Counted from the first letter of the stretch, positions 4,796-59,331 are shown. The stretch is 64,000 bases of DNA from Clostridia bacterium (GCA_045648785.1 JAZROP010000020.1:2968-66967), one strand, 5' to 3'. The notes: generated by a model not told the origin, from the sequence alone. A program made the numbers and translations.

Positions 4796-5821
4796 TTGAT
4801 GATAGATACAAAACTTAAAAACAGAAAATTTAACGAAATATTGCTGGACTATGCACTATATATTGTTCTTGGAGCAATGATTGTGGCAGTAATTATTGCC
4901 GACCCGTCCTTTATTTCGCTGAAAAACATAACAAACATTTTAAGTCAGGCATCAACGAGGGGAATTCTTGCACTTGGGGTGGCGGGGCTTATTGTTTTGC
5001 AGGGGACAGACCTTTCGGTTGGTAGAGTGCTTGGACTTTGCGCCATTATATCTGCGTCACTCCTGCAATCTTCGACTTATGCGGCAAGAATGTACCCGGA
5101 CCTTCCTGCGCTGCCTCTTATTATTCCTCTTATTATATCTGTTATTATAGGTGGCATTTTCGGGGCTATAAATGGATTTGGTGTTGCAAAACTTAAAGTT
5201 CATGCGTTTATTATCACGCTTGGCACTCAACTTATTGCATACGGAATTTCCTGTATTTACATTGACAGACCGCCACTTGGTGCACAACCTGTCGCCAATC
5301 TTGATGAAAGATATATTGATTTTGTAACAGGCTCGATTAAATTTGGGAATGTAGAAATACCATATCTGATATTTTATCTTATAATTGTGGCACTGGTAAT
5401 GTGGTTTATCTGGAATAAAACCACGCTTGGAAAAAATATGTTTGCTATAGGCGGAAACCCGGAGGCGGCTGCAGTTTCTGGTGTAAATATAGTAAAAAAT
5501 ATAATGATAATATTTATAATTTCAGGTGTTCTATATGGACTTGCTGGCTTTTTAGAGGCGGGTAGAGTGGGGTCTGCGACAAGTAACACCGGAATTAACT
5601 ATGAGCTTGACGCAATTTCTGCCTGTGTAGTTGGTGGGGTATCCTTCTCGGGAGGCGTGGGAACAATTCCCGGGGTACTGATAGGTACGCTTATTTTGCA
5701 GTTTATCAACTATGGGCTCAACTTTATCGGTGTAAGTCCGTATTATCAGTATATAATTAAAGGACTTATAATAATATTTGCAGTATCAATAGATGTGCGA
5801 AAATATCTTGTGAAAAAATGA
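4796..5821 (+). CDS. mglC: sugar ABC transporter permease (MglC/RbsC family)
   Basis: The product is a 341-aa polytopic membrane protein with the branched-chain/monosaccharide permease signature GGNPEAAAVSGVNIV. It is the third gene of the operon. Confidence 0.8.
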   Translation: MMIDTKLKNRKFNEILLDYALYIVLGAMIVAVIIADPSFISLKNITNILSQASTRGILALGVAGLIVLQGTDLSVGRVLGLCAIISASLLQSSTYAARMYPDLPALPLIIPLIISVIIGGIFGAINGFGVAKLKVHAFIITLGTQLIAYGISCIYIDRPPLGAQPVANLDERYIDFVTGSIKFGNVEIPYLIFYLIIVALVMWFIWNKTTLGKNMFAIGGNPEAAAVSGVNIVKNIMIIFIISGVLYGLAGFLEAGRVGSATSNTGINYELDAISACVVGGVSFSGGVGTIPGVLIGTLILQFINYGLNFIGVSPYYQYIIKGLIIIFAVSIDVRKYLVKK

Positions 5822-5856
5822 AGTCAGGGCGAATTTAAAACCGCCCTGACTTTTTG
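5822..5856 (+). terminator. intrinsic terminator after mglC
   Basis: A perfect GC-rich hairpin, agtcagggcg...cgccctgact, is followed by a TTTTTG tract. Confidence 0.7.
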
Positions 5857-5864
5857 TGTTGTTA

Positions 5865-5893
5865 TTGACAAAAAAAGCTTATAATGATAGAAT
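5865..5893 (+). promoter_or_regulatory. sigma-A-like promoter for the Wzy-like gene
   Basis: TTGACA, a 17-nt spacer, then TAGAAT, about 35 nt upstream of the RBS GAAGGGGAAA and the ATG at 5926. Confidence 0.45.
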
Positions 5894-5925: not shown

Positions 5926-7188
5926 ATGGCAGAATTATACAGAGATAACAGGACTTTTTTTAGTCTTGAAGATGATACATGGATTGCACTTGCGATATGG
6001 GCGATTTTGACTCAAATCGGTATACTCAATTCAATAAACGGAATTGTCGAGGCCTTTGTGGATAATCATATCTGGTGGGATACTGCACTTGTAAGAGGTG
6101 TTTATGCAATTTTCATAGTGATTGGAACGATGGCTGCAATAAAAAGAATGGAACGCAGGGTATTTATATTAGTGGTTTTAGTGGCGTTTTTGTGGTTTAT
6201 AAGCTTTTTGACAAATGAAAATGCAAGAATGCTTCTGAAGATATATTATTTTGAGTCTGTTATGGTATATGGGCTATGTGGAATTATATGTATCGGTCAT
6301 TTCAACAACTGGGATAAATTTATTAAAGTAGGCAGGTACTTTATTCTTTTAGGCTTTCTTCTTTTTGTACCATTAACATTTTTGATTATTAACGGACAAA
6401 GTGAACAAAATTATATGTCCTTTTCTTATAATAATATCGTGTTTGTTGTTGGGGCATTCTGGCTTGGTATCCGTAGAAAAAATATACTTATGTTTATTTT
6501 TGCGGGAATTGGAACCATACTTATTGTTATAGGTGGATGCAGAGGTGCTGTGATTTGTATTCTGTCATATGTTATTATGGAATTTATTCTTAACAAAAAA
6601 ATTCATATTGCAGCTAAAATAGCATTTGTGATAGCGGTAATTGCAATTTATTTGAACTTGGAAAGGCTTATAATTGAACTTGATGCAATTCTGAAAAATT
6701 TTGATTATGATAGCAGAACAGTAGAATTATTTTTGGAAGGTAAGATTGAAAGCGATAGCGGAAGAAGTAATACATTTAATGCTGCTATACAAGTAATAAA
6801 GGATTCACCGATTATCGGTCGGGGAATGGCAGGAGGATCAAGGTTTTTGATCAAGCAGATGTATGGTGTGGAGCCTTATCTGCTACAGCATGGATACTCA
6901 CACAATCTGTTTTTGGAATTATGGATGGAGTATGGCGTTATACTCGGAACATTTTTCATTGGATGGATTATTGTAAATATAATAACCGGATTTTTGAAAA
7001 ACAGAAAAACAGGTAATGACTGTATGCTTTATTTTCTTATGGCTATTACATTGCCTAAGCTTATGGTTACGGGTACATATTTAGGAGAAACACCATTCTT
7101 TATATTGTTGGCGTTATTAGTTAACCTTAACTGTTATAACAAAGAAAATCCGTGGGAAAAGAGGGAGTCGGTGATAAATGACAAATGA
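5926..7188 (+). CDS. O-antigen ligase / Wzy-family polysaccharide polymerase-like membrane protein
   Basis: The product is 420 aa and polytopic. The C-terminal periplasmic loop carries the Wzy_C/WaaL-type motif GYSHNLFLELWMEYG (H-N-x-x-L-E). Confidence 0.6.
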   Translation: MAELYRDNRTFFSLEDDTWIALAIWAILTQIGILNSINGIVEAFVDNHIWWDTALVRGVYAIFIVIGTMAAIKRMERRVFILVVLVAFLWFISFLTNENARMLLKIYYFESVMVYGLCGIICIGHFNNWDKFIKVGRYFILLGFLLFVPLTFLIINGQSEQNYMSFSYNNIVFVVGAFWLGIRRKNILMFIFAGIGTILIVIGGCRGAVICILSYVIMEFILNKKIHIAAKIAFVIAVIAIYLNLERLIIELDAILKNFDYDSRTVELFLEGKIESDSGRSNTFNAAIQVIKDSPIIGRGMAGGSRFLIKQMYGVEPYLLQHGYSHNLFLELWMEYGVILGTFFIGWIIVNIITGFLKNRKTGNDCMLYFLMAITLPKLMVTGTYLGETPFFILLALLVNLNCYNKENPWEKRESVINDK

Positions 7189-8350
7189 ACAGATTTATCT
7201 GATTCATCTTCTGTCCTGCGCAATTAGAAATTGCGCACCTAACCCGCCCAAAGATGATATTTCGTGGCAGAAAATCAGAGAAACAGCTGAAAAACAGAAA
7301 ATTCTTCCTCTGTTGTATGAAGCAGTGAATAAACTGGATAAAGAGCACCAACCGGAAGAAAATGTAATGAAACTCTGGGAGAAGCAGACGCTTAGTTGTA
7401 CATTGTTTTATGCTTTCCAGATGCAGCATATTTCAGCGCTTTTAGAAGCAGCAGAGAAAAACGGGATTGATATGCTTGTTTTAAAAGGCATGGTTTTAAG
7501 AGAGCTTTATCCGGTTCCTGAACTCAGAACAATGAGCGATGTTGATATTTTAATAAAGCCTGAGATGGTTAATGAGGTCAAAAGTTTGTTTTTTTTAAAC
7601 GGCTATGAGATTGTCAGTGAAAATGCGGGGCCGACCATTTATTATAAAAAAGATGTTTTGAAATTTGAAGTTTTTCATGTAATTCCGTCGGGGCTTAAAT
7701 CAGCAAAAGGAACGGAAATTGATATATGGGCTAATCCACGCATTATGCGTGGGGAACATATTTTTATGCCGTCAGCAGAAAATATGTTACTTCATTCTTT
7801 TACACATCTTATGAAACATCTCAGGACCCGTGGGGCGGGAATAAGAAATCTTGCGGATATAGTTCTGCTACTGGAAAAAACAAAGATTAATATGGAATAT
7901 GTTCATAAACAGATAAAACTGCTTGAAGCAGAAAAAATCTTCAAGGGGATTCTGTTTGCGGCAAAGAAATATTTTGAATTTGATACGCAGGAGGATTTTT
8001 CTGAGATTGATGAGGAATATGTGGATAAGCTGATGGAATATATGGTCATGACCGGCGTATATGGAGAGATGGATAATGCTTATATTCTTGATGCTCGTAC
8101 GGCCGAAGGGAATAAGAGTACACGAATAAAAAATTATGTTGTTAAAATGTTTCCGTCTGCGTCAAAACTTTCTGATAAATATGAATATGCCAAAAAAAAT
8201 CACTGGTTGGTTCCGGTGGCGTGGGTTCATCGGATATATAATATTGTTTTTAAAGAAGGGCAATCGGTTGGCATAAATATAAAAAACATGAAAGAAGCAA
8301 CGAATACAGTTGATTTTCAGATGGGAATTTTAGAGTATTTTAAACTATAA
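7178..8350 (+). CDS. PF14907-like (NTP_transf_5) polymerase-beta-superfamily nucleotidyltransferase
   Basis: The motif LKGMVLRELYP...MSDVDILIKPE fits the G-[SG]...D-x-D nucleotidyltransferase active-site pattern. The product is 390 aa. The start overlaps the Wzy-like gene by 11 nt, which suggests translational coupling. Confidence 0.5.
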   Translation: MTNEQIYLIHLLSCAIRNCAPNPPKDDISWQKIRETAEKQKILPLLYEAVNKLDKEHQPEENVMKLWEKQTLSCTLFYAFQMQHISALLEAAEKNGIDMLVLKGMVLRELYPVPELRTMSDVDILIKPEMVNEVKSLFFLNGYEIVSENAGPTIYYKKDVLKFEVFHVIPSGLKSAKGTEIDIWANPRIMRGEHIFMPSAENMLLHSFTHLMKHLRTRGAGIRNLADIVLLLEKTKINMEYVHKQIKLLEAEKIFKGILFAAKKYFEFDTQEDFSEIDEEYVDKLMEYMVMTGVYGEMDNAYILDARTAEGNKSTRIKNYVVKMFPSASKLSDKYEYAKKNHWLVPVAWVHRIYNIVFKEGQSVGINIKNMKEATNTVDFQMGILEYFKL

Positions 8351-8373
8351 TTTTACAAAAGAGGAATAGTGTT

Positions 8374-9420
8374 ATGAAAAAAATCAAGGAATTTTTAAAA
8401 AGAAAAAACATAGAATTTTCAGCCAAAAGATATGGTATAGATGCTCTTTCGGCAATGGCGCAGGGACTTTTTGCGTCACTGCTTATAGGCACGATACTGT
8501 CAACGATAGGTCAGCAGTTTAATGTTTTAGTGTTGGATGAAATTGGTGCATTTGCGAAAAGTGTACAGGGAAGTGCAATGGCAATTGCTATCGGTTATGC
8601 ACTAAAATGTCCTCCGCTTGTGCTGTTTTCACTCACAGCAGTCGGTTATGCGGCAAATGCATTGGGCGGTGCCGGTGGTGCGCTGGCGGTGCTTATTATT
8701 ACAATAGTTGCGGCAGAACTTGGCAAAGCAGTAAGCAAAGAAACAAAGCTTGATATTTTGGTTACGCCTATTGTAACCATTTGCTCTGGAATATTGCTTG
8801 CGATGCTTATTGCTGAACCTATTGGAAAAGGTGCATCTGCGGTTGGTAGCTTTATAATGTGGGCAACTGAGCTTCAGCCTTTCTGGATGGGAATTATTAT
8901 TTCTGTTGTTGTTGGCATAGCACTGACACTTCCTATTTCAAGTGCAGCAATCTGCCATGCAATTGGACTTACCGGACTTGCCGGTGGGGCGGCTCTTGCA
9001 GGTTGTTGTGCACAGATGGTAGGATTTGCGGTTATGAGCTTTAGAGAAAACCGTTGGGGTGGTCTTCTGGCTCAGGGTATAGGTACAAGTATGTTGCAAA
9101 TGGGCAACATAGTAAAAAATCCCCGCATCTGGATAGCCCCCATCATTACTTCGGCTATTGTAGGACCCGTTTCTACTTGTGTATTTAAACTTGAAATGAA
9201 CGGGGCACCAATTTCGTCGGGAATGGGAACCTGCGGAATGGTTGGTCAGATAGGTATGTATACAGGATGGGTTGCAGACGGCACGGCGATTACTGCAATG
9301 CATTGGGTTGGGATGCTTTTGACACATATAATTCTTCCGGCGATTATTTGCTGGGCGCTCGGGCTTTTATGCAGAAAAATCGGCTGGATTAAAGAAAACG
9401 ATTTAAAACTTGATTTGTAG
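8374..9420 (+). CDS. Gly/Ala-rich polytopic membrane protein, possibly PTS-EIIC-2-family-like transporter
   Basis: The product is 348 aa. The N-terminus KRYGIDALSAMAQGLFASLLIGTIL and multiple Gly-rich transmembrane segments resemble EIIC-2-type membrane proteins. The family assignment rests on memory only. Confidence 0.35.
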   Translation: MKKIKEFLKRKNIEFSAKRYGIDALSAMAQGLFASLLIGTILSTIGQQFNVLVLDEIGAFAKSVQGSAMAIAIGYALKCPPLVLFSLTAVGYAANALGGAGGALAVLIITIVAAELGKAVSKETKLDILVTPIVTICSGILLAMLIAEPIGKGASAVGSFIMWATELQPFWMGIIISVVVGIALTLPISSAAICHAIGLTGLAGGAALAGCCAQMVGFAVMSFRENRWGGLLAQGIGTSMLQMGNIVKNPRIWIAPIITSAIVGPVSTCVFKLEMNGAPISSGMGTCGMVGQIGMYTGWVADGTAITAMHWVGMLLTHIILPAIICWALGLLCRKIGWIKENDLKLDL

Positions 9421-9428
9421 GAGTTTGT

Positions 9429-10535
9429 ATGAATAATCCGTTGGTTAGTGTTATTGTACCGGTATATAATGTTGAAAAATATTTGCCGAGATGTATAACA
9501 AGCATTTTATTGCAGACATATTCAAATATTGAACTTTTACTTGTAAATGACGGTTCAACAGACAGAAGTGGACGGATATGTGATGATTATGAAAAAGCGG
9601 ATAATCGCATAAAAGTTATACATAAATCTAACAGCGGGGTATCTGAGTCGCGAAATGCAGGTATAGCAGTGGCTTCAGGTGAGTTTATAGTTTTTGTTGA
9701 TTCTGATGACTGGCTGGAGAAAACAGCTATTGAACATATGGTTGTTATATCAGCGAGAGAACAAACAGAAATTGTGATGATGTGGTTCGACCACAGAAAC
9801 AATAAAATTATTAAACCTGCATTTAATATAACCAGTAATTATATGGATGTAAACACTACCAAGGCTGAATGTTGGAAAGAATTTTTTCAACTTTATATAT
9901 CTCATGTGGTTTGGGGTAAACTCTATTCTGCAGAGATTATTAAAAAGCATAATATAAGATTTGATAACAATATAGCTTATGGTGAGGATACAATATTTTT
10001 GTTTGAATATTTATGTTGTTGTGAAAAACTTTATATTTCAGAAAAGGTAGTATATCACTATAATAAACTCAATGATAATGCAGCGACAAGAAAATACCAT
10101 GAAAATTTAATTGAGGGAATATTTAAGTACCATGTTTTCATGGGGAAATTTGTAGATAAGCTTAATATTAAACAAAACGAAAAAGATGCTATTATGGGAT
10201 GGTGTGCAGTTAAACGCATACTTAATCTTATATATCCGTATGTATATTATCTTGCAAAAGAACAATCACTGGTTAATATTGAAGGTTGCCTTATACAGTT
10301 TGAAAAGTGGCTTGATACGGATGATGTGTGGAAATATAATTGGGGTAAAGAGTCAAGACTTGTAGATGCTATATGTGACAGAGATATTGAAAGGATTTAT
10401 AAAGAACAACGAAAATTGTTTGAAAAAACATCTCCTAAACAATTTGTCAGCACAATTGTCTATCAAATATTAAAACCGGTAATAGAGAGAAAACGGGACG
10501 GACTTATCACACATAAATTTAAGATGAAAACTTGA
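9429..10535 (+). CDS. family 2 glycosyltransferase
   Basis: The N-terminus VSVIVPVYNVEKYLPRCITSILLQTYSNIELLLVNDGSTD and the DSDD (DxD) motif are the canonical GT2 (GT-A) signature. Confidence 0.85.
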   Translation: MNNPLVSVIVPVYNVEKYLPRCITSILLQTYSNIELLLVNDGSTDRSGRICDDYEKADNRIKVIHKSNSGVSESRNAGIAVASGEFIVFVDSDDWLEKTAIEHMVVISAREQTEIVMMWFDHRNNKIIKPAFNITSNYMDVNTTKAECWKEFFQLYISHVVWGKLYSAEIIKKHNIRFDNNIAYGEDTIFLFEYLCCCEKLYISEKVVYHYNKLNDNAATRKYHENLIEGIFKYHVFMGKFVDKLNIKQNEKDAIMGWCAVKRILNLIYPYVYYLAKEQSLVNIEGCLIQFEKWLDTDDVWKYNWGKESRLVDAICDRDIERIYKEQRKLFEKTSPKQFVSTIVYQILKPVIERKRDGLITHKFKMKT

Positions 10536-10562: not shown

Positions 10563-10639
10563 GGGCGCATAGCTCAGCTGGTCAGAGTGCTTGCTTGACA
10601 TGCAAGAGGTCACAGGTTCGAGCCCTGTTGTGCCCACCA
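10563..10639 (+). tRNA. tRNA-Val (anticodon GAC), CCA encoded
   Basis: A cloverleaf folds by hand. The acceptor stem is GGGCGCA/TGTGCCC with one G-T wobble. The D-arm is AGCTCAGCTGGTCAGAGT. The anticodon stem cttgc/gcaag carries the loop ttGACat. The T-arm is GGTTCGAGCCC, the discriminator is A, and CCA follows. Confidence 0.85.
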
Positions 10640-10675: not shown

Positions 10676-11635
10676 GTGAGGAAGTATTGCTTTTTGGTTT
10701 TGTCGTTGGTAATATTGATGGTTTCAATTTTTTCTTATGTAGCGTGTGCAGATGAAATTTGCGGTGATGCTCTAGTATGGTCTGTAACTGAAAATATACT
10801 TACTGTAAGCGGAACGGGTGAGATGTATGATTTTGTTTCGACATCATCCGCTCCCTGGTATAATCAGCGCGATGAGATAACGCAAGTGATTGTTAAAAAC
10901 GGAGTTGAGTCCATAGGATATGGAGCATTCAGAGGACTTTATAATCTGGAAAAAATTGATTTGCCTGAAAGTGTAGTTCAAATAGACAGATATGCGTTTG
11001 ATGGATGTAGTTTACTTGCGGAAATACATATAGATGAAAATAATGCTGTTTACTCATCTAAGGATGGGATACTTTTTAATAAAAGTATGACAAAGCTGCT
11101 TCAGTATGCAACCGGGAATAAAAGAAATGTGTATGTTATTCCAACCTCTGTTACTGAAATTGACTGGTATGCCTTTTCGGTAAGCAATAATCTGAAGAAA
11201 ATAGTTATTGGTGAAAAGGTGAAAACAATTGGATACAGAGCCTTTTACAGAATTTACAGTATAACAGATGTTTATTATACAGGTGGTTCTGCAGACTGGA
11301 AAAGTATTTCGGTAGGTTCATATAACGCAGGGATTACTAACGCTAAAAAACACTATTGCTGTGAAGCAACGACTGATTTTGATGCGGAAAAGAATGAAAT
11401 TACGGTTAGCAGTATTAACCCATATGAAAAAGCATTGGTTTGCAAGGCTTACTATAAAAGTGAAAAAATGCTGAGCAGGAAATGTACAGAAGTTAAAATT
11501 AATACCGGCACCAATACATTTGCAGTACCCCAATTTACTTGTGAAGATGCAGATAAAATGAAGCTTTTTGTGTGGGCAAGTAGTGTTACAGCAAAACCTC
11601 TGTGTGAAATAATACAAGAAGATTTAATCAATTGA
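10676..11635 (+). CDS. secreted BspA-type leucine-rich-repeat (LRR_5) surface protein
   Basis: A GTG start lies 6 nt after the GGAGGAAAG RBS. The signal peptide reads RKYCFLVLSLVILMVSIFSYVACA. Repeated SV/TxIxxxAF blocks (ESIGYGAFRGLYNLEKIDLPESVVQIDRYAFDGC, VTEIDWYAFSVSNNLKKIVIG) are typical of BspA-like LRRs. The longer ORF in the track begins inside the tRNA and is not credible. Confidence 0.65.
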   Translation: MRKYCFLVLSLVILMVSIFSYVACADEICGDALVWSVTENILTVSGTGEMYDFVSTSSAPWYNQRDEITQVIVKNGVESIGYGAFRGLYNLEKIDLPESVVQIDRYAFDGCSLLAEIHIDENNAVYSSKDGILFNKSMTKLLQYATGNKRNVYVIPTSVTEIDWYAFSVSNNLKKIVIGEKVKTIGYRAFYRIYSITDVYYTGGSADWKSISVGSYNAGITNAKKHYCCEATTDFDAEKNEITVSSINPYEKALVCKAYYKSEKMLSRKCTEVKINTGTNTFAVPQFTCEDADKMKLFVWASSVTAKPLCEIIQEDLIN

Positions 11636-11716
11636 AGCACTTTTTGACAAAAGTGCTTTTTTGTTTGACACAGGTATGTATATATTGTATAATTACTTGT
11701 GGAGGATTGATGAAAA

Positions 11717-13150
11717 ATGGTGAAACTTAAAGGATTAAAACCAGAGAAGGTTTTTGAATATTTTGAAGAAATATCTGCCGTTCCGAGAGGGTCTGGCAAT
11801 ATGAAACAAATAGCGGATTATTGTATGTCTTTTGCGAATAAAAACGCCCTAAAAGCGGTTCGGGATAATGCGGATAATGTTGTTATTTATAAGCCTGCAA
11901 CAAAAGGTTTTGAAAATGCTGATCCTGTAATTTTACAGGGGCATCTTGATATGGTCTGCCAAAAGGAAGCAGGTCGCGACATAGATTTTGAAAAAGACGG
12001 ACTTGAAATATATATCGATGGCGACTATATAAAAGCAAAAGGGACAACATTAGGTGCGGATAACGGAATTGCGGCGGCAATGATTCTTTCGATACTTGCG
12101 AGCAATGATATTAAACACCCGCCGATAGAAGCACTTTTTACAACAGATGAAGAAATCGGTATGATTGGGGCATCACAGCTTGACGGCTCTTTGTTCAGGG
12201 GTAAGCAGTTGATAAATCTTGATTCAGAGGAGCAGGATAAGTTGACCGTTTCTTGTGCAGGAGGAAGTGAATTTGAGATAAATATACCCATTGACCGAAA
12301 AAAGATAAGAGGCAGGAAAGTTACTTTCTCGCTGACGGGACTTAAAGGCGGTCATTCTGGAATAGAAATTGATAAGGGCAGAATTAATGCGGCTGTCCTT
12401 TCGGGAAGATTTTTGAATGAAATTGGGGATTGTGAGATAATTTCAATTACAGGCGGTGACAAGAGCAATGCAATAACTAACGCCTGTGAGGTTGAACTTG
12501 TGTGTTCAGACGCTGAAAAAACAGTTTCAGAAATTAAAAGTTGTTATGAAATTGTTAAAAAAGAAATTGCAGAAACAGAGCCGAATTTTGAGGTTTCGGT
12601 AATGACGGGTGAAGAATGTGAATTTGAGGTTGTTGATGGGACTGCAAAAGAAAAGCTTATATTTGCGCTTCTTTTTATGCCTAACGGTGTTCAGTCTATG
12701 AGTGCAAGTATTGCCGGGCTTGTTGAAACCTCGCTAAATCTCGGGATTTTAAAGACAGAGGCCGATAAAATTGTTATGGTTTCGGCACTCAGGAGCAATA
12801 AACAGTCTGCACTTGAATATCTTGAGAGAAAGCTGAAAACTTTTGCAAAATCGCTTGGATGCAATGTTAAAACCTATGGACATTATCCGCCGTGGGAATA
12901 TAAGGAAAATTCGGCACTTCAGGAAATTTATAAAAAATGTTTCAAAGAAAAGTTTGGTTATCTTCCGACAGTTGAAGCTATACATGCGGGACTTGAATGC
13001 GGAACTCTTTCGGCCAAAATAAAAGACCTGGACGCAATTTCAGTTGGACCTGATCTTTCTGATGTTCATACCACAAAGGAGAAACTGAAGATATCATCGG
13101 CGAGGGAAATGTATGAACTGATATGTGAACTACTTGGCAAAATGAAATAA
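11717..13150 (+). CDS. pepD: aminoacyl-histidine (Xaa-His) dipeptidase, M20C
   Basis: The product is 477 aa with the motifs HLDMV, DNGIAAAM and TTDEEIGMIGA, which match PepD-family dipeptidases. Confidence 0.85.
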   Translation: MVKLKGLKPEKVFEYFEEISAVPRGSGNMKQIADYCMSFANKNALKAVRDNADNVVIYKPATKGFENADPVILQGHLDMVCQKEAGRDIDFEKDGLEIYIDGDYIKAKGTTLGADNGIAAAMILSILASNDIKHPPIEALFTTDEEIGMIGASQLDGSLFRGKQLINLDSEEQDKLTVSCAGGSEFEINIPIDRKKIRGRKVTFSLTGLKGGHSGIEIDKGRINAAVLSGRFLNEIGDCEIISITGGDKSNAITNACEVELVCSDAEKTVSEIKSCYEIVKKEIAETEPNFEVSVMTGEECEFEVVDGTAKEKLIFALLFMPNGVQSMSASIAGLVETSLNLGILKTEADKIVMVSALRSNKQSALEYLERKLKTFAKSLGCNVKTYGHYPPWEYKENSALQEIYKKCFKEKFGYLPTVEAIHAGLECGTLSAKIKDLDAISVGPDLSDVHTTKEKLKISSAREMYELICELLGKMK

Positions 13151-13285
13151 AAAATATGAGTCTCTCTTAAATCAAGGGAGACTTTTTAAATAAAAAGCAT
13201 ATAATTGTTGATTTTTTGGACGAAATATGGTAGAATAAATAATTAGAAAAATAAAAAGTCGGGTTCACGACAGAATGGAGAATAT

Positions 13286-15196
13286 ATGAGTAATCAGAAC
13301 GACTTCAAACCGTATGTTCCGGCAGAAAAGATTACACCGGAGCTTACTATTACATCAATAGTAATGGGCGTAATCCTTGCTATTGTATTTGGTGCAGCGA
13401 ACGCATACCTCGGACTCAGAGTTGGTATGACCGTTTCTGCATCAATTCCTGCAGCGGTTATTTCTATGGGGGTTATTCGTGTTTTAATGCGTAAAAATTC
13501 TATCCTTGAAAGTAATATTGTTCAGACCGCAGGCTCTGCGGGTGAATCACTTGCGGCAGGTGCTATTTTCACTCTTCCTGCACTCTTTTTGTGGGCGGCT
13601 GAAGGTAAAATGGACAAGCCGGGCATTGTGGAAATTACACTTATCGCACTTTTAGGCGGACTTTTAGGCGTATTTTTCATGGTTCCTCTTCGTAATGCTC
13701 TTATTGTAAAAGAACATGGAATTCTTCCTTATCCGGAAGGTACAGCCTGTGCGGAAGTTCTTCTTGCAGGCGAAAAGGGCGGAGCAAACGCGTCTACTGT
13801 ATTTGCAGGTATGGGTTTTGCAGCTCTGTTTAAATTTATAATTGACGGTCTTAAACTTGTTTCTGGTGAGGTATCGCTCAGAGTAAAAGGTTTTGCCGGG
13901 GAAATCGGTACACAGATTTATCCTGCGGTAATGAGCGTTGGGTACATCTGCGGTGCAAGAATTGCATCTTATATGTTTGCAGGCGGCGTATTAAGCTGGA
14001 TGGTTATTATTCCTATTGTTGTACTTTTTGGTGCTGATATTACCCTTTATCCCGGATCGGTTCCCATAAGTCAGATGTTTGCTGAAGGCGGTGCAAGTGC
14101 TATCTGGAGCTCCTACATAAGATATATAGGGGCAGGCGCACTGGCGGCAGGGGGTATAATAAGTCTTGTTAAATCACTTCCGCTTATTGTTTCAACTTTC
14201 CGCGGAGCAATGAAAAGCATCACAGGCTCTAAAAATACAATAAGCAATCGTACAACACAGGACATGAATATGAAAGTTGTTATAGGAGCTATTGTGGTTC
14301 TTACACTTCTTGTATGGCTTGTTCCTGCAATTCCTGTTTCACTTGTCGGCGCAGTGATTGTTGTTGTGTTCGGTTTCTTCTTTGCAACCGTTTCTTCCAG
14401 AATGGTTGGTCTTGTAGGAAGTAGTAACAATCCTGTTTCGGGTATGGCTATAGCTACACTTCTTGTTACAACGCTTATTTTAAAACTTACTGGGGATAAC
14501 GGAGTTGCGGGTATGGCAAGTGCTATTGCAATCGGGTCTATTATCTGTATTGTTTCAGCTATCGCTGGAGATACATCTCAGGACCTTAAAACAGGTTACC
14601 TTTTAGGCGCAACGCCAAAAAAACAACAGTATGCTGAGGTTGTAGGTGTAGTTGCCGCGGCTCTTGCAATTGGTGGAACACTTTATCTGCTGGACAGTGC
14701 ATGGGGCTTTGGCGGCGATGAACTGGCTGCTCCCCAGGCAACTCTTATGAAGCTTATAATTGAGGGCGTTATGGAGGGTAACCTTCCCTGGACACTTGTA
14801 TTTATAGGTGTGTTTATTGCTATTGTGGTTGAACTTATCGGCATTCCGGTTCTTCCGTTTGCAATCGGTGTATATCTGCCTGTTCAGCTTAATGCATGTA
14901 TCATGGTTGGCGGTCTTGTTCGTCTTTCACTTGATAAACTCAAAAAACAAAAAGAAGAAAAAGATGCTATCGTAAACGACGGTATTCTTTTCTGCTCAGG
15001 CATGATTGCCGGAGAAGGTATTGTTGGTATTCTTCTTGCACTTCTTGCGGTGTTTGGTATTGACAAGATGCTTGACCTTTCGACAGTTCTTGGAATTTCA
15101 GCTCCGGTTGCAAATATTGGAGGAATTGTACTCTTTGCAATTACTATTCTGACAGTACTGAAATTCTCTATGTGGAAAAAACGCACACTTAAATGA
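13286..15196 (+). CDS. OPT-family oligopeptide transporter
   Basis: The product is a 636-aa polytopic membrane protein with the OPT-superfamily (bacterial clade) sequence pattern GSAGESLAAGAIFTLPAL...SQDLKTGYLLGATPKKQQ. Confidence 0.8.
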   Translation: MSNQNDFKPYVPAEKITPELTITSIVMGVILAIVFGAANAYLGLRVGMTVSASIPAAVISMGVIRVLMRKNSILESNIVQTAGSAGESLAAGAIFTLPALFLWAAEGKMDKPGIVEITLIALLGGLLGVFFMVPLRNALIVKEHGILPYPEGTACAEVLLAGEKGGANASTVFAGMGFAALFKFIIDGLKLVSGEVSLRVKGFAGEIGTQIYPAVMSVGYICGARIASYMFAGGVLSWMVIIPIVVLFGADITLYPGSVPISQMFAEGGASAIWSSYIRYIGAGALAAGGIISLVKSLPLIVSTFRGAMKSITGSKNTISNRTTQDMNMKVVIGAIVVLTLLVWLVPAIPVSLVGAVIVVVFGFFFATVSSRMVGLVGSSNNPVSGMAIATLLVTTLILKLTGDNGVAGMASAIAIGSIICIVSAIAGDTSQDLKTGYLLGATPKKQQYAEVVGVVAAALAIGGTLYLLDSAWGFGGDELAAPQATLMKLIIEGVMEGNLPWTLVFIGVFIAIVVELIGIPVLPFAIGVYLPVQLNACIMVGGLVRLSLDKLKKQKEEKDAIVNDGILFCSGMIAGEGIVGILLALLAVFGIDKMLDLSTVLGISAPVANIGGIVLFAITILTVLKFSMWKKRTLK

Positions 15197-15549
15197 TGAA
15201 AAAGAAAAATATTATATCTGAAAACTATCTTGAACGGGTGCCTGTCCGTGCAGACATTAAATGGTCGGTTGACGATACGGGTAAGGTTACTCTTGAGATG
15301 GAAAACAAAGGAGCTTTCAATCGGATTGCCCAAAAGCTTTTTAAAAAGCCAAAGATAAGCTATATTCATCTTGATGAGACCGGCAGTTTTGTGTGGCCGC
15401 TTATTGATGGTGAGAAAAGCATCTTGGAGTTGGGCAAGGGTGTGGAAACAAAGTTCGGTGAAAAGGCAAAACCTCTTTATGAACGGCTTGCCACATATTT
15501 CAGCATTCTCGAAAGCTATAATTTTATAAAGTTCAAACAGCCGTCCTGA
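15193..15549 (+). CDS. small bacterial PH-domain (bPH) protein, translationally coupled to the OPT gene
   Basis: The ATG overlaps the OPT stop in an ATGA arrangement. The product is 118 aa with a bPH-like beta-rich sequence. The family assignment is tentative. Confidence 0.5.
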   Translation: MMKKKNIISENYLERVPVRADIKWSVDDTGKVTLEMENKGAFNRIAQKLFKKPKISYIHLDETGSFVWPLIDGEKSILELGKGVETKFGEKAKPLYERLATYFSILESYNFIKFKQPS

Positions 15550-53209: not shown

Positions 53210-54475
53210 TTATCCTTTCGCCTTAAGCGCTTTTTGACCAATGTCTTTCCGATAGAATGCATTTTCAAAGGAAACTTTTTTTACTTCGTCATAAGCCTTT
53301 TCTATAGCTTTTTCAAGGCTTTCGGCAGTAGCTGTTACACCTAAAACTCTGCCGCCGCCCGAAAGTAGCTTTTCGCCATCAAGCTTTGCGCCTGCAACAT
53401 AAATTTCCGCCTCTGTTTCGGTGGGGAGAGTAATTTCGTAGCCTGTTTCGTACTTTCCGGGATAGCCGTTTGATGCCATGATGACACAACAAGCAGCACC
53501 GGATGAAAACTCAACCTTTGTATCTGCAAGGGTTTCGTTTTCAACTGCTTTCATAACCTCAAACAGGTCGGACTTTAAGAGTGGGAGAACAACCTGAGTT
53601 TCAGGGTCACCAAAACGACAGTTGTATTCAATAACCTTAGGACCGTTTGGGGTGAGCATAAGTCCGAAGTAGAGGCAGCCTTTAAAGGTTCTGCCCTCGG
53701 CGTTCATTGCGTTGATTGTAGGAAGAAAAATCTTTTCCATACATTCATTTGCAATAGCGTCGGTGTAATAGGGGTTGGGAGCAACCGTTCCCATGCCACC
53801 AGTGTTGAGTCCTTCGTCATTATCAAGTGCGCGTTTGTGGTCCATTGAGGAAATCATAGGAACAACAGTTTTACCGTCAGTAAACGATAAAACAGAAACC
53901 TCGGGACCTGTCAAAAATTCTTCTATAACGATTCTCGAACCGCTTTCACCAAAAACCTTGTCCTCCATCATGGATATAACCGCTGATTTGGCATCTTCTC
54001 TTGTTTCGGCAATGATAACGCCTTTGCCCAGCGCAAGTCCATCAGCTTTGATGACTGTGGGGATGGGTGCTGTTTCTAGATAAGAAAGAGCTTCGTTTTT
54101 ATCAGTAAAAATCTGATACTCTGCGGTAGGAATACCATATTTTTTCATAAGATTTTTTGAAAAAACCTTACTGCCTTCAATCTCAGCTGCCGCTTTTGAT
54201 GGACCAAAACAGGGGATACCTATTTCGCGTAGCCTGTCTGTTGCACCAAGAACAAGCGGGTCATCGGGAGCAACAACCGCAAATTTAATATCATTGTTTT
54301 TCGCAAAATCTACAATTCCGTCAATATCTTTTGCACCGATGCCGGTACAAATGGCGTCGGCGGCTATACCGCCGTTGCCAGGAAGAGCGTAAATTTCTGT
54401 AATTTCAGAACTTTTTTTAAGTGATTTTATAATAGCATGCTCGCGACCGCCGCCGCCCACAACCATTATTTTCAT
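53210..54475 (-). CDS. purD: phosphoribosylamine-glycine ligase
   Basis: The internal start MKIMVVGGGGREHAI follows a GGAGGAAT RBS. The ATP-grasp fold is present. Confidence 0.9.
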   Translation of the reverse strand: MKIMVVGGGGREHAIIKSLKKSSEITEIYALPGNGGIAADAICTGIGAKDIDGIVDFAKNNDIKFAVVAPDDPLVLGATDRLREIGIPCFGPSKAAAEIEGSKVFSKNLMKKYGIPTAEYQIFTDKNEALSYLETAPIPTVIKADGLALGKGVIIAETREDAKSAVISMMEDKVFGESGSRIVIEEFLTGPEVSVLSFTDGKTVVPMISSMDHKRALDNDEGLNTGGMGTVAPNPYYTDAIANECMEKIFLPTINAMNAEGRTFKGCLYFGLMLTPNGPKVIEYNCRFGDPETQVVLPLLKSDLFEVMKAVENETLADTKVEFSSGAACCVIMASNGYPGKYETGYEITLPTETEAEIYVAGAKLDGEKLLSGGGRVLGVTATAESLEKAIEKAYDEVKKVSFENAFYRKDIGQKALKAKG

Positions 54476-54491
54476 AGGTAATTCCTCCTGA

Positions 54492-55733
54492 TTATTCGTA
54501 GATGGGGAACTTTTCGCAAAGCTCAATTACTTCTTTTGTAACCTGGTCTTTTGTAGCTTCAAAATCGGAAGCAACCAGCTTAATCCAATGAGCAATTTTC
54601 TTCATTTCTTCTTCCTTGAAACCACGGGAAGTAACCGCAGGAGTACCTATACGGACACCACTTGTTACGAATGGGCTTTCGGGGTCATTGGGAATTGTAT
54701 TTTTGTTTGCTGTAATATGAACTTCATCAAGACGATGTTCCATTTCTTTGCCTGTGATGCCAAAAGGACGAAGGTCAAGAAGCATCAGATGATTGTCTGT
54801 GCCACCGGATACAATATCGAATCCTTCTCTAATAAATTCCTCGGATAAAACTTTAGCATTTTTAATAATCTGTTTCTGATATTCTTTGAATTCGTCAGTT
54901 AATGCTTCGCCGAAAGCAACTGCTTTAGCGGCAATAATATGCATAAGAGGTCCGCCTTGAATTCCGGGGAATATAGCTTTGTCAATCTGTTTTGCATATT
55001 CTTCTTTACAAAGGATAAGACCACCTCTGGGACCGCGCAGAGTTTTATGAGTTGTTGTTGTTACAACATCTGCATAGGGAACAGGAGATGGATGGAGTCC
55101 TGCGGCAACAAGACCGGCAATGTGAGCAATGTCAACCATCATGATTGCGCCAACTTCGTCACAGATTTCACGAATTTTTGCAAAGTCAATAGTTCTTGCA
55201 TAAGCACTTGCGCCCGAGACAATCATTTTGGGTTTACATTCAAGTGCGATTTCACGCATTTTATCATAGTCAATTCTGCCTGTTTCATCATCAACGCCGT
55301 AAGGAACGATGTTGAAATATTTACCTGAAATATTGACAGGGCTGCCGTGAGAAAGGTGACCACCGTGAGCGAGATTCATACCCATAACGGTATCGCCCGG
55401 CTGAAGGAAAGCAAAGAATACTGCAAGGTTAGCATTAGCACCGCTGTGAGGCTGAACATTCGCATGTTCAGCACCGAACAGCTTTTTAGCTCTTTCTCTT
55501 GCAATTTCTTCAACTTCATCAACATGGATACAACCGCCGTAATAGCGTTTGCCCGGATAGCCTTCTGCATATTTGTTTGTCAGAACACCGCCGGCAGCAA
55601 GAAGTACTGCTTCTGATACAATGTTTTCGGAAGCTATAAGTTCAATGTTATGTTTCTGACGGGAAAGTTCTCTGTCGCAAGCAGCAAAAACTTCACTGTC
55701 ATAATTTTTAAGCTGGTCAAAAAATTTACTCAT
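54492..55733 (-). CDS. glyA: serine hydroxymethyltransferase
   Basis: It has LIASENIVS and [14 protein letters not shown], the PLP-lysine region. The product is 413 aa. Confidence 0.9.
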
Positions 55734-55752
55734 TTTCTAATCTCCTTATATA

Positions 55753-56940
55753 TTAATGATGAAACAATCTCATGTGTGTGAATGCCATTGATATGCCAAG
55801 CTTGTTGCAAGCGTCAATTACAAGCTGGTCACGAATGGAGCCACCCGGCTGTGCGATGTATGTTACGCCACTTTTTGCAGCTCGTTCAATATTATCACTG
55901 AATGGGAAGAAAGCATCTGAACCTAATGCAACATCCTTAATGCTATTAAGGTAAGCATCCTTTTCTTCTTTAGTGAAAGGCTCAGGCTGAACCTTAAAGA
56001 ACTGCTGCCAGTTGCCGTCTGCCAGTACATGGTCCGCATCAAAATCGGAAATGTAAAGGTCAATACAGTTATCTCTGTCAGGTCTGCCAATTTCATCAAG
56101 GAAAGGTAGATTTAAAACTTTGTCGTGCTGACGGAGATGCCAGTTATCAGCTTTCTGTCCGGCAAGTCTTGTACAGTGAATTCGTGACTGCTGACCTGCA
56201 CCTACGCCGATTGCCTGACCGTCTGCAGCAAAGCATACAGAGTTAGACTGAGTATATTTAAGTGTGATAAGTGCAACTATAAGGTTTCTGATTGCACTTT
56301 CGGGGAGTTCTTTATTTTCTGTAACAATTTCTGTAAGCAGTTCGCGGTTTATTTCAAAATCGTTTCTGCCCTGTTCAAATGTGATTCCGAAAACCTGTTT
56401 GCGTTCAATGGGATCAGGAATATAATTTTCGTCTATTTTTACAATGTTGTATGTGCCTTTTCTTTTGCTTTTTAAAATTTCAAGAGCCTCATCTGTATAT
56501 CCGGGAGCGATAACACCATCGGAAACCTCTCTTGCAATAAGAGAAGCGGTTACCTTGTCACACTCGTCAGATAAAGCAATCCAGTCACCGAAAGAACTCA
56601 TTCTGTCAGTACCCCTTGCACGGGCATAGGCCAGAGCGAGAGGAGAAGAATCAAGGTCTGCAATATCATCAACAAAGCAGGCTTTCTTGAGTTTATCGCT
56701 CATTGGCAGGCCGAGTGCCGCGGAAGTAGGACTTACATGTTTAAATGATGTAGCACATGGAATACCGAGCGCTGCTTTTAAATCACGAACGAGTAGCCAG
56801 CTGTTAAATGCATCAAGAAAGTTGATGTATCCGGGTTTGCCATTTAAGATTTCAACCGGCAGGTCGCTTCCGTCGTGCATATAAATTCTTGAGGGTTTCT
56901 GATTGGGATTACAACCGTATTTAAGTTCAAAAGAGTTCAT
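55753..56940 (-). CDS. purH: AICAR transformylase-only PurH (no MGS-like IMP cyclohydrolase domain)
   Basis: The product is 395 aa and corresponds only to the AICARFT domain of bifunctional PurH (FKHVSPTSAALG, DAFFPFSD, IAQPGGSIRD). The N-terminal ~200-aa IMPCH/MGS domain is absent. Confidence 0.8.
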   Translation of the reverse strand: MNSFELKYGCNPNQKPSRIYMHDGSDLPVEILNGKPGYINFLDAFNSWLLVRDLKAALGIPCATSFKHVSPTSAALGLPMSDKLKKACFVDDIADLDSSPLALAYARARGTDRMSSFGDWIALSDECDKVTASLIAREVSDGVIAPGYTDEALEILKSKRKGTYNIVKIDENYIPDPIERKQVFGITFEQGRNDFEINRELLTEIVTENKELPESAIRNLIVALITLKYTQSNSVCFAADGQAIGVGAGQQSRIHCTRLAGQKADNWHLRQHDKVLNLPFLDEIGRPDRDNCIDLYISDFDADHVLADGNWQQFFKVQPEPFTKEEKDAYLNSIKDVALGSDAFFPFSDNIERAAKSGVTYIAQPGGSIRDQLVIDACNKLGISMAFTHMRLFHH

Positions 56941-57671
56941 TATCGAAGTCCTCCTTCATGTTTATTTACTATTCTTGTGTCAATTTTACCTGTTTTAAGG
57001 TTTGTGAAACGGACAAACATAGAAATTTTATTGTTTTCATCAAGAGCTTCCCAAACTTTTTTTGTAAGCTCATCAATATCGTTTGGAAGAGAAATTCTCT
57101 CGGGTTCGCCTGTGAAGGTGGGAAGAGGATTTCCATCACAGTTATAAGTATGAATAAAATGACCTACTCCTGCGATTGCTGGATAAGTAAAGGTGTATCT
57201 GCTGCAAGCTGTGCCCTCAGCGTCTGCACTTTTTAAAATATTCATTTTATAAGTAAAATCATTATTTACAAACTCAAGCATACCGCTGATTCTGGGTGTG
57301 AAGTTGGGCGCATCAGGCTCAAATTCGCGAGTATCAAGTGCCGCCTCAAAGCTTTCACCTTTAGCAAGATGGTCATAAACTGTATCAGTTTGGTCGCCGT
57401 TTGTTACGATTAGTTTGTTTTCAAATTTTCTCACAGGAGAATAAATGATAAGCGAAGGGTCAGAAACCTTGCTTTCATCAAAAGGATAAATGGTGATATC
57501 TTCACCGTTTACTTTAAAAACTCTGTTCCTTGAGTTTTCGCTTCTGCCCATGATAAAGTAGATAGCAACTGCATTTTCACCGTCGGCAGTTTTGCCAATT
57601 GCAATACCTCTGCCTGGATATGTATTGTCTTTTAACAAGTCTAAAAGACAATATGTCTGATATACATTCAT
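56940..57671 (-). CDS. purO: PurO-type (archaeal-like, PF07826) IMP cyclohydrolase
   Basis: From the internal Met (MNVYQTY...), the motifs YPGRGIAIGKT...IVTNGDQTD parallel PurO YLGRILAVGRN...VVSNGSHTD. The ATG overlaps the purN stop in an ATGA arrangement, and the stop overlaps the purH ATG. Confidence 0.7.
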   Translation of the reverse strand: MNVYQTYCLLDLLKDNTYPGRGIAIGKTADGENAVAIYFIMGRSENSRNRVFKVNGEDITIYPFDESKVSDPSLIIYSPVRKFENKLIVTNGDQTDTVYDHLAKGESFEAALDTREFEPDAPNFTPRISGMLEFVNNDFTYKMNILKSADAEGTACSRYTFTYPAIAGVGHFIHTYNCDGNPLPTFTGEPERISLPNDIDELTKKVWEALDENNKISMFVRFTNLKTGKIDTRIVNKHEGGLR

Positions 57672-59301: not shown

Positions 59302-59331
59302 GATAGATACCTTAGCCTTTCTATATTAATC

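Follow-up and report, generated by a model that had tools for sequence, protein, structure and literature searches.

Organization of the locus

The window studied here is a 64-kb stretch of DNA from a Clostridia bacterium, a host organism known from metagenomes only, and four tightly spaced genes lie in it on the plus strand downstream of mglC. The first (5926-7188) encodes a 420-aa protein of the Wzy_C family, a predicted membrane glycan ligase or polymerase with 12 TM segments and a WaaL fold; the second (7178-8350) encodes a soluble 390-aa nucleotidyltransferase-like protein of PF14907 (NTase below) with a Pol-beta fold, translationally coupled to the first; the third (8374-9420) a polytopic membrane protein and conserved transporter of PF13303, 'PTS_EIIC_2' (EIIC_2 below); and the fourth (9429-10535) a GT2 glycosyltransferase of GT-A fold, a variable add-on of atypical composition. 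All four proteins gave Pfam calls above gathering score with the profiles that the preliminary description of this DNA had suggested (PF04932, PF14907, PF13303 and PF00535). The first two reading frames overlap by 11 nt, the following gaps measure 23 nt and 8 nt, and GT2 ends 27 nt before a tRNA-Val(GAC) (10563-10639, plus strand; ARAGORN; Rfam 68.3 bits), which marks the 3' end of the locus; this arrangement agrees with that description throughout. Beyond the tRNA, and outside the glycan unit, lies a gene for a secreted BspA-type LRR protein (10676-11635, plus strand; PF13306 LRR_5, E 1.3e-21). The region is closed by an intrinsic terminator (11634-11659, plus strand) found by the terminator scan, which on sequence comparison with positions 12390-12430 of the related locus L001 is homologous to the terminator directly 3' of GT2 there.

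The upstream limit of the locus is the intrinsic terminator hairpin of mglC (5821-5852, no strand assigned), identified by the terminator scan and by sequence; a hairpin is kept at this site in each syntenic genome, with a different stem sequence each time. It is followed by a sigma-A-type promoter (5865-5893, plus strand) that reads TTGACA, 17 nt, TG-n-TAGAAT, matches the consensus at 11 of 12 positions and has an extended -10 TG, so that the promoter expected after the mglBAC terminator is indeed there. Since the window and the relatives L001, L002, L004 and L017 agree fully in the -35 and extended -10 boxes, within a surrounding spacer that has diverged, the match to the consensus is not a matter of chance. 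The unit of Wzy_C and NTase genes is predicted to be transcribed from this conserved strong promoter.

Profile searches of the locus detected neither a priming transferase nor a flippase, and no gene for a chain-length regulator or for nucleotide-sugar synthesis; the first two were also missing from the ORFs scanned elsewhere in the 64-kb window (all but about 25 ORFs beyond 16 kb), so that the glycan donor is hypothetical. As to the genes of a Wzx/Wzy cassette, the mglC-pepD interval holds only Wzy_C and one GT2; it is thus not a self-contained Wzx/Wzy-dependent cassette, which had also been the initial judgement.

The putative ligase and the nucleotidyltransferase

The Wzy_C domain (PF04932, residues 194-345) scored 47.3 bits (cut-off 31.7), and the HN..LE motif noticed earlier is present as YSHNLFLEL. 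The predicted topology is that of WaaL-type enzymes, with about 12 TM segments, the last bundle of which is preceded by a large loop facing outward; the lipid-A-core ligase WaaL is the best fold match, and no PDB match was found at the sequence level. R206, R264, R280 and H326, all placed in predicted outer loops, are invariant in 15-17 homologues. We regard the product as a putative ligase or polymerase of a cell-surface glycan.

The second protein matches NTP_transf_5 (PF14907) with 164.7 bits (cut-off 31.2) and has the motif KGMVLRELYP...MSDVDIL, both as previously assigned. Across 42 NTase sequences, which reach down to 19% identity, there is no variation at K103-G104 (G-[GS] motif), at D121-x-D123 or at the third carboxylate, E164, the Pol-beta catalytic residues thus being intact, and an HxxxH (H210/H214) is conserved as well. 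The structural match is to the ANT(2'')/LnuA-type nucleotidyltransferase fold, with 4xje as the top template. The family is uncharacterised, as had been said: the protein has no NCBIfam match and no PDB sequence match, and the literature on its family amounts to one passing mention. PF14907 proteins are known by the thousands, none of them characterised in a glycan context.

Homologues distantly related to the NTase (22-32% identity) occur within polysaccharide or teichoic-acid-type loci. Wzy_C, NTase and GT2 are all genes of the cell-surface-glycan type. The neighbours of 29 such homologues are mostly GT4, GT2, Bac_transf, Wzx, nucleotide-sugar enzymes and TagF-like and LtaS-like proteins, and phosphodiesterase genes are also found beside them. 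Wzy_C adjoins the NTase in one of these 29 loci outside the close clade (L008), so the pairing is not a general property of PF14907; the NTase/Wzy neighbourhood is conserved in the close clade and not in the distant loci.

Synteny and divergence among relatives

The order spoVAD-mglBAC-Wzy_C-NTase-EIIC_2 is syntenic in five flank-bearing lineages (L001/L016, L002, L004, L017 and L019), and three shorter contigs (L003, L005 and L018) carry some or all of the last three genes but not the spoVAD-mglBAC flanks; every related genome recovered has Wzy_C-NTase-EIIC_2 in this position. The suggestion that this is strain-specific accessory DNA therefore fails for these three genes, which behave largely as core genes in a conserved context, and survives for GT2 only.

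The sequence of the pair, however, is far less constant than its position. L002 and L001 are about equally close to the window in the flanks (SpoVAD 93% and 93%, MglC 94% and 95%, respectively), whereas in the pair L002 is much more distant (Wzy_C 48% versus 74%, NTase 50% versus 74%), and nucleotide identity between the window and L002, ~0.79 up to the mglC/Wzy_C boundary, drops there to 0.55-0.63. The pairwise identities of Wzy_C and NTase are correlated (r = 0.94, Mantel 2/720; 0.83 once the closest pair is left out). Each family reduces to one narrow clade, the same for both, and wherever both ends were called or matched, which holds for six loci, the two ORFs overlap; these comparisons point to one common evolutionary history of the two genes. 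The pair diverges much faster than its flanks, hypervariable in content and constant in presence. Accessory GTs and sugar-nucleotide genes also vary between lineages, and EIIC_2 is flanked by variable glyco genes, a GT4 upstream in L019 and GT2, epimerases or phosphodiesterase downstream. The rapid divergence of the pair could come from relaxed constraint instead of diversifying selection; synonymous sites are saturated, and pepD too is merely 57-75% identical among relatives.

The EIIC_2 gene

The third protein, formerly left in an unclear family, matches PTS_EIIC_2 (PF13303) end to end (306.5 bits, profile positions 2-327 of 327) and has more than 8000 homologues, hundreds of them at 75-95% identity. 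It is a single-domain protein, and no EIIA, EIIB, HPr or EI partner was found among the scanned ORFs of the window; nor is there a PTS family in the 25 most frequent families listed (of 128) for the 90 genes next to orthologues that are 66-76% identical. In view of the missing PTS partners and fused EIIB, EIIC_2 is not to be counted among functional PTS proteins.

One explanation takes the whole operon including EIIC_2 as a single pathway, in which EIIC_2 would import a sugar or precursor, or would export or flip a lipid-linked intermediate and so fill the missing flippase or transporter role. In fact, EIIC_2 follows the NTase by 3-33 nt in every syntenic genome with a terminator after EIIC_2 only, and it is retained in every locus variant without an obvious promoter of its own; such retention and tight spacing are also the picture expected of a functional partner. 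The variable glyco genes on either side of it fit this explanation, as do its position after an MGDG-synthase-type glycolipid synthase in L012 and L014 and next to an envelope polysaccharide/SLH cluster in L011, L130 and L131. However, housekeeping genes predominate in the neighbour census of EIIC_2 and no glyco family recurs: Wzy_C, NTase or MGDG synthase was near it in 0 of 80 metagenome loci, and in 85 of 85 other loci fetched it stood in unrelated contexts without Wzy_C or NTase. The sole recurrent functional neighbour is the gene of a NiaR-family regulator (15 of the 80 metagenome loci, and L011, L130 and L131), and TGT-N4-ACA palindromes, for example the NiaR-type CACAGGTGTCATGACACCTGTG, were found upstream of EIIC_2 orthologues in 16 of 72 regions versus 6.8% of shuffles; the window itself has neither a niaR gene nor a NiaR operator for EIIC_2. 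Moreover, the pairwise identities of EIIC_2 are uncorrelated with those of the pair (r = 0.36; -0.11 without the closest pair), which together with its unrelated contexts speaks against the four-gene module initially described; its history is uncorrelated with the flanks too, and it is 72-92% conserved where Wzy_C and NTase are 36-74%. We consider a single pathway unlikely, and EIIC_2 is probably a vitamin-type transporter merely co-transcribed with the pair and outside the glycan pathway.

The LRR gene, GT2 and the tRNA

A second explanation sees in Wzy_C a protein O-oligosaccharyltransferase of the PglL or WsaB type, which would act on a secreted or S-layer protein such as the product of the LRR neighbour, with the NTase and GT2 as tailoring enzymes for the glycan. 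PglL-type and WsaB-type enzymes have the same Wzy_C domain; the LRR gene lies just downstream, before the common terminator, with a GGAGG-GTG start and a signal-peptide-like N terminus; and L008 pairs its NTase with a Wzy_C+TPR protein beside a sortase. However, L001 lacks any counterpart of the segment 10523-11634, and no LRR homologue was found in any fetched locus, so that the gene is window-specific; since it is absent from every other syntenic genome, the LRR protein is not the conserved acceptor. No target protein was identified in this analysis, the best fold match of Wzy_C is WaaL, and with 420 aa and no extra periplasmic domain the window protein is presumably nearer in size to WaaL and TacL than to PglL and WsaB. 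We find such a role rather improbable.

The GT2 protein (PF00535, 127.8 bits; best PDB match GalT1 5hea, E 1.5e-40; DxD-type motif D-S-D-D at residues 91-94) is encoded by a gene wedged between EIIC_2 and tRNA-Val, which is present in the window and L001 only (65% identity) and has a GC of 0.314 (z -3.15) and a GC3 of 0.242 (z -2.83), the lowest GC3 in the window. This composition and narrow occurrence, the placement of GT2 and the window-only LRR gene on the two sides of the tRNA, and the discordance of the pair sequence with the flanks would all fit a horizontally acquired strain-specific islet integrated beside tRNA-Val. For Wzy_C-NTase-EIIC_2 this is largely refuted, since every related genome found carries these genes in the one position. 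The NTase is native in GC3 (z +0.19) and Wzy_C is no outlier (z -0.84), so atypical composition holds for GT2 and not for the pair; neither an integrase between mglC and pepD nor flanking direct repeats were found. In addition, a tRNA lies directly 3' of EIIC_2 in L017, as an orthologous tRNA-Val(GAC) with 2 differences, and in L018 and L019 as tRNA-Val(TAC), and no tRNA-Val is at this site in L001, L002 and L004; the tRNA gene is an ancestral landmark of the locus, and not an island boundary for the module. Among the four genes only GT2 seems acquired, and an islet is very unlikely as an account of the locus.

Hardly credible is the idea that the NTase belongs with the MenT/AbiEii-like toxins or defence nucleotidyltransferases, has nothing to do with glycans and adjoins Wzy_C by coincidence, given that no PADLOC model matched any of the four proteins, that no antitoxin-like small ORF lies near the NTase, that the NTase co-evolves with and overlaps Wzy_C and has homologues in polysaccharide loci, and that its large helical N- and C-terminal domains are absent from MenT, 154-175 of 390 residues aligning over the core fold only.

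Discussion

With some reserve, we favour the reading that an uncultured gut Clostridia lineage (Monoglobales-like) has here a surface-glycan locus that is hypervariable and fixed in position, not a mobile island, with the Wzy_C/NTase pair as its core and EIIC_2 as a passenger. We predict that Wzy_C and the PF14907 gene, translationally coupled as they are, form the functional unit. In the mechanism that we propose, a lipid-linked glycan would be supplied from elsewhere in the genome, and the cytoplasmic PF14907 transferase would decorate this glycan or the acceptor before export, on a sugar hydroxyl or phosphate, with a nucleotide-derived group, which may be NMP or a phospho-sugar or phospho-alcohol from an NDP donor. 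Wzy_C, with its invariant Arg/Arg/His residues predicted on the outer membrane face, would ligate or polymerise the undecaprenyl-pyrophosphate-linked glycan onto a lipid, glycan or protein acceptor. As the ligase would have to recognise the decorated glycan, Wzy_C and NTase would diversify together, in the manner of wzy and waaL alleles at serotype loci. The acquired GT2 would add one more sugar in the window genome and L001, and EIIC_2 would be a conserved transporter for small molecules, of the kind that belongs to the NiaR (niacin) regulon, which uses the operon promoter and is dispensable for glycan chemistry.

A broader and much more tentative idea is that PF14907 might be a widespread unrecognised class of glycopolymer-tailoring transferases, which would place nucleotide-derived or phosphodiester-linked substituents on lipid-linked glycans and which here would be locked in co-evolution with a WaaL-like ligase as a minimal two-gene 'serotype switch'. 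If true, such a switch would diversify the surface glycoconjugate between otherwise near-identical genomes.

Comparison with known systems

ANT(2'')-Ia and LnuA are single-domain antibiotic resistance enzymes of 160-180 aa, whereas the window NTase has 390 aa, added helical domains and the HxxxH, is 13-15% identical to them and has no resistance context. PsmN of the pseudomycoidin lasso-peptide cluster was described as a member of an uncharacterized nucleotidyltransferases family and modelled on ANT(2'') (4xje, 5cfs); its DxD pair D134/D136 is essential, and it is required for adding a hexose to a phosphate (PMC6993621). The window NTase is likened to it by description, through the top template 4xje and the invariant D121-x-D123, and a common Pfam membership is presumed. 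However, PsmN acts on a phosphorylated peptide in a RiPP cluster with an HPr-kinase and PqqD, while the window context is a glycan ligase and a GT2. LicD, fukutin and FKRP, which are NTase-fold phosphotransferases decorating glycans from CDP-choline or CDP-ribitol, offer a functional analogy: a cytoplasmic NTase-fold enzyme would add a phosphodiester-linked substituent to a glycopolymer, later attached by a Wzy_C-type ligase as in pneumococcal teichoic acid.

Both TacL, the pneumococcal lipoteichoic-acid ligase, and WaaL, the O-antigen ligase, are Wzy_C-domain proteins. The structural alignment of WaaL with the window protein has about 13% identity, and the window Wzy_C differs from the two in being uniquely coupled to a PF14907 gene and hypervariable between otherwise close species. 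For EIIC_2, the likeness is to NiaY (BH3254), a predicted niacin transporter of the NiaR regulon in Bacilli and Clostridia with roughly 9 TMS and no similarity to known proteins, whose gene adjoins niaR or sits behind NiaR operators (PMC2330245). This likeness is one of gene context, EIIC_2 orthologues lying near NiaR-family genes or palindromes; unlike NiaY, the window EIIC_2 is driven from the glycan-operon promoter.

Compared with serotype-determining glycan loci such as cps (dexB-aliA) and O-antigen (galF-gnd), the present locus is far smaller (2-4 genes) and, being without an initiating transferase, a flippase and a chain-length regulator, is not self-sufficient. Nevertheless, it resembles them in its fixed chromosomal position between conserved flanks, in the abrupt identity drop at its boundary, in having the ligase/polymerase gene as the most divergent one, and in its lineage-specific accessory GTs and sugar-nucleotide genes.

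Results

Gene organization and signals of the operon

Four same-direction ORFs make up the locus, encoding a Wzy_C-domain protein (5926-7188), an NTase of PF14907 (7178-8350), an EIIC_2 protein of PF13303 (8374-9420) and a GT2 (9429-10535). The first two overlap by 11 nt, gaps of 23 nt and 8 nt follow, and a tRNA-Val(GAC) (10563-10639) lies 27 nt 3' of the last ORF. This layout agrees with the preliminary description, whose family guesses were also right for all four proteins, with scores far over threshold (Wzy_C 47.3, PF14907 164.7, PF13303 306.5 and GT2 127.8 bits); the NTase and the EIIC_2 protein are without any NCBIfam model. The mglC terminator (5821-5852) precedes the promoter TTGACA-17-TGaTAGAAT (5865-5893), which is credible as the operon promoter because five genomes share an unchanged -35 box and extended -10 box while the spacer around them has diverged. 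The terminator hairpin is likewise kept in each genome compared, with a stem sequence that differs every time.

The locus is preceded by spoVAD (minus strand) and mglBAC, and beyond it come a secreted LRR gene, pepD and an OPT transporter gene with an overlapping PqqD-like ORF, with an ordinary purine-biosynthesis operon (purD, glyA, purH, purF-like; 53210-60777, minus strand) farther off. No polysaccharide-biosynthesis genes were found among the ORFs scanned in the remainder of the window, and an Rfam search of 1-16 kb returned the tRNA as its sole match, with no riboswitch or other element. The OPT oligopeptide transporter gene and the 118-aa PqqD-like ORF (PF05402, E 1.6e-7) overlap by 4 nt (13286-15549), an arrangement also present in two of the related loci fetched for comparison, L001 and L005. 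A PqqD domain usually serves as the recognition element of a RiPP system; there are no RiPP maturation genes near this ORF, and synteny with L001 marks the gene that follows as a serine dehydratase.

A fixed position with variable content

The genomes nearest to the window are MAGs of uncultured Clostridia from gut or rumen, one of which carries a Monoglobales label. The order spoVAD-mglBAC-Wzy_C-NTase-EIIC_2 is found in L001/L016, L017, L002, L004 and L019, with NTase identities to the window of 74, 52, 50, 43 and 42%, respectively, and the shorter contigs L003, L005 and L018 hold the last three genes, complete or in part, without the upstream flanks. L001 is collinear with the window at about 79% nucleotide identity. 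As judged by gene order, the locus is thus core by position, with no integrase or flanking repeats present at it. The idea that it is strain-specific accessory DNA therefore fails for the first three genes, which occupy the same site in relatives, and stands for GT2, which occurs in the window and L001 only and is atypical in composition.

It is indeed the fourth position that changes in gene content. The window and L001 have GT2 there (65% identity), L002 has no gene, L004 (12370-16551) and L005 have sugar epimerase/dehydratase (Polysacc_synt_2/epimerase) genes together with a patatin and an S9-like protein, and L017 has an alkaline-phosphatase-superfamily phosphodiesterase (12549-13313); L019 has an additional GT4 5' of Wzy_C (7548-8783). 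GT2 is the clear compositional outlier of the window, with GC 0.314 (z -3.15) and GC3 0.242 (z -2.83). The synonymous sites of the NTase are native (GC3 z +0.19), and the Wzy_C gene is not a GC3 outlier (z -0.84), its low overall GC being due to a membrane protein's amino-acid usage.

The tRNA-Val is absent from L001, L002 and L004, and the segment 10523-11634, which covers the tRNA and the LRR gene, is missing entirely from L001. We considered that both were a window-specific insertion, and this was rejected for the tRNA: an orthologous tRNA-Val(GAC) with two differences lies directly 3' of EIIC_2 in L017, and in L018 and L019 EIIC_2 is followed by a tRNA-Val(TAC) that has a promoter and a terminator of its own in both. 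The ancestral order is therefore EIIC_2 then tRNA-Val, and GT2 is, on these comparisons, a gene interposed in the lineage of the window and L001, which agrees with its composition. The insertion reading holds for the secreted BspA-type LRR gene (10676-11635), which is bounded by the tRNA-Val on one side and, on the other, by the terminator found directly after GT2 in L001; none of the related loci contains a homologue.

Joint divergence of Wzy_C and NTase

Judged by the flanking genes, L001 and L002 are equally near to the window (SpoVAD 93% for both, MglC 95 and 94%, respectively), whereas inside the locus L002 is far less similar than L001 (48 vs 74% for Wzy_C, 50 vs 74% for the NTase). The nucleotide identity between the window and L002 is about 0.79 up to the mglC/Wzy_C boundary, drops exactly there to 0.55-0.63, stays low across the NTase and recovers partially in EIIC_2. 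In sequence, the locus is thus hypervariable by content. Divergence is given here as identity in place of dN/dS, synonymous sites being saturated once nucleotide identity is down to about 79%.

The identities of Wzy_C and NTase follow each other closely over all 15 genome pairs (r = 0.94, reached by 2 of 720 permutations), and still do so with the window-L001 pair left out (r = 0.83). The correlation of Wzy_C is 0.70 with the flanks and 0.36 with EIIC_2, the latter falling to -0.11 when the same pair is left out. Moreover, the Wzy_C and NTase ORFs overlap by 4-11 nt in six loci (those with both ends called or matched). Relatives above 40% identity are scarce (NTase, 18; Wzy_C, 11), and the next ones are at 36% or less. 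From these sequence comparisons we conclude that the two genes behave as a single unit in inheritance, exchange and diversification.

The NTase and the Wzy_C protein

The AF2 model of the NTase is confident (pLDDT 88.6). K103-G104, D121-x-D123 and E164, and in the helical domain H210, H214 and D227, are invariant among homologues as low as 19% identity, and because of this invariance the protein is probably an active transferase. Signal peptide and TM segment are both absent, so it should work in the cytoplasm. An exhaustive search gave 8,154 cluster representatives at E <= 1e-3. We looked among the longer matches for informative domain fusions and rejected these, for the long proteins are only tandem duplications of the whole domain (e.g., the records P0217, P0284 and P0300, about 800 aa), which suggests that the family may act as dimers. 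A defence or toxin role was also rejected, as no PADLOC defence model matches the NTase.

Homologues at 22-32% identity sit within complete polysaccharide loci, next to Bac_transf, Wzx, Wzy, GT4, GT2, pyruvyl transferases and RmlD-type and epimerase enzymes, as well as proteins resembling TagF and LtaS and, in a single case, a Wzy_C+TPR protein; among 29 distant loci, a Wzy-like (Wzy_C) protein adjoins the homologue in L008 only. Together with the variable genes of the close relatives, the TagF-like and LtaS-like neighbours hint at phosphodiester-containing glycopolymers.

The model of the Wzy_C protein is confident as well (pLDDT 83.9, pTM 0.84). From its helices, combined with K/R-rich loops (73-78, 183-186, 223-227 and 360-364), we infer 12 TM segments with both termini inside, a topology in which every invariant charged residue would lie on the outer side of the membrane. 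The invariant residues are G204-x-R206-G207-A208, R264, R280 (in DSGR), Y324-x-H326-N, G337 and G341. Its activity may be that of a ligase, a polymerase or a protein O-oligosaccharyltransferase, which computation cannot separate.

The EIIC_2 protein

More than 8,000 homologues of EIIC_2 exist, hundreds of them with 75-95% identity, and orthologues of 78-89% identity occur in unrelated contexts. The EIIC_2 alleles form two classes. Class A, comprising the window, L001 and the NiaR-linked genomes L011, L130 and L131, shows 85-92% identity among its members; class B (L002, L004, L017 and L019) shows 84-86%, and 70-77% to class A. This split matches neither the flank phylogeny nor the Wzy_C-NTase pair, and allelic replacement or old paralogy is possible.

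In L011, L130 and L131 a divergently transcribed regulator (HTH_11+3H, NiaR-family) adjoins EIIC_2, and a long conserved inverted repeat, TTTACACAAAA...TTTTGTGTAAA (about 7900-7945), immediately borders the -35 box in the EIIC_2 promoter; unlike the published type I NiaR operator, it may be a variant operator. An inositol-monophosphatase-family gene lies 10 nt 3' of EIIC_2 in the same three genomes. In a metagenome census of 80 EIIC_2 loci at 66-76% identity, a NiaR-like gene is found in 15, located about 90-120 nt upstream in 12 of them and, in 11 of these 12, on the same strand (L115 was called on the opposite strand). TGT-N4-ACA, the published NiaR type I core (PMC2330245), occurs in 16 of 72 EIIC_2 upstream regions vs 6.8% of shuffles, and many matches are extended palindromes, e.g., CACAGGTGTCATGACACCTGTG, 50 nt upstream in L114. 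Neither a NiaR operator nor a niaR gene was found in the window. This pattern of genes and operators, seen over L050-L129, L011, L130 and L131, fits NiaY, a predicted niacin transporter with about 9 TMS (PMC2330245), the likeness being one of description and context, and PF13303 may correspond to the niacin transporters of the NiaY family. The neighbour families listed for EIIC_2 orthologues include no PTS partner, and the Pfam name "PTS_EIIC_2" and the NCBI product name "PTS sugar transporter subunit IIC" probably mislead. Literature naming PF13303 by accession amounts to a single incidental mention, with nothing relevant linking NiaY with PTS.

An MGDG-synthase gene 5' of EIIC_2 in L012 and L014 gave the idea of an LtaA-like glycolipid flippase; it was rejected as the main reading, as none of the 80 further loci has Wzy_C, NTase or MGDG synthase near EIIC_2. 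On this genomic context we treat EIIC_2 as a conserved transporter sharing the operon promoter. A real role in the glycan pathway seems unlikely, and is granted some small weight because the gene is kept with 3-33 nt spacing in every locus variant.

Discussion

Surface glycans govern the interactions of gut Clostridia with phages and host immunity, and to our knowledge they are almost unstudied in uncultured lineages. In the mechanism we propose, the NTase-fold enzyme would tailor, on the cytoplasmic side, a lipid-linked glycan made elsewhere, on which GT2 would also act in the window and L001; a putative transporter would flip the tailored glycan, and the WaaL-like protein would transfer or polymerise it on the outer face. 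Such a ligase would have to recognise the tailored glycan, and hence the ligase and NTase genes would co-diversify.

If true, this would give PF14907, a large uncharacterised family, its first functional context, namely glycopolymer tailoring partnered with a WaaL-like ligase, and the two genes would serve as a compact marker of glycan-type variation in these MAGs. It would also correct the "PTS EIIC" name of PF13303, whose proteins, without PTS partners, look like vitamin transporters of the NiaR regulon, a renaming relevant to metabolism prediction in gut microbiomes. Current understanding is not overturned, and the result is a useful lead rather than a surprise.

With regard to known systems, literature naming PF14907 by accession is limited to one incidental mention, and PsmN appears to be the only experimental lead for the NTase. 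It was described as an "uncharacterized nucleotidyltransferase" modelled on ANT(2''), and its DxD pair is needed for hexose attachment to phosphoserine (PMC6993621; PMC11912497); the window NTase has the same ANT(2'') templates, the two being likened by templates and description, with PF14907 membership of PsmN assumed. For the Wzy_C protein, TacL of S. pneumoniae, a Wzy_C-domain protein of similar size which ligates teichoic-acid chains to glycolipid (PMC5727136), is an example of what such an enzyme is capable of in Gram-positives. The component superfamilies are known, and so are small fixed-site variable glycan loci as a type of system; what appears new, from comparing about seven lineages, all of them MAGs, is the co-evolving pairing of a WaaL-like protein with PF14907 and the consistent glycan context of this family.
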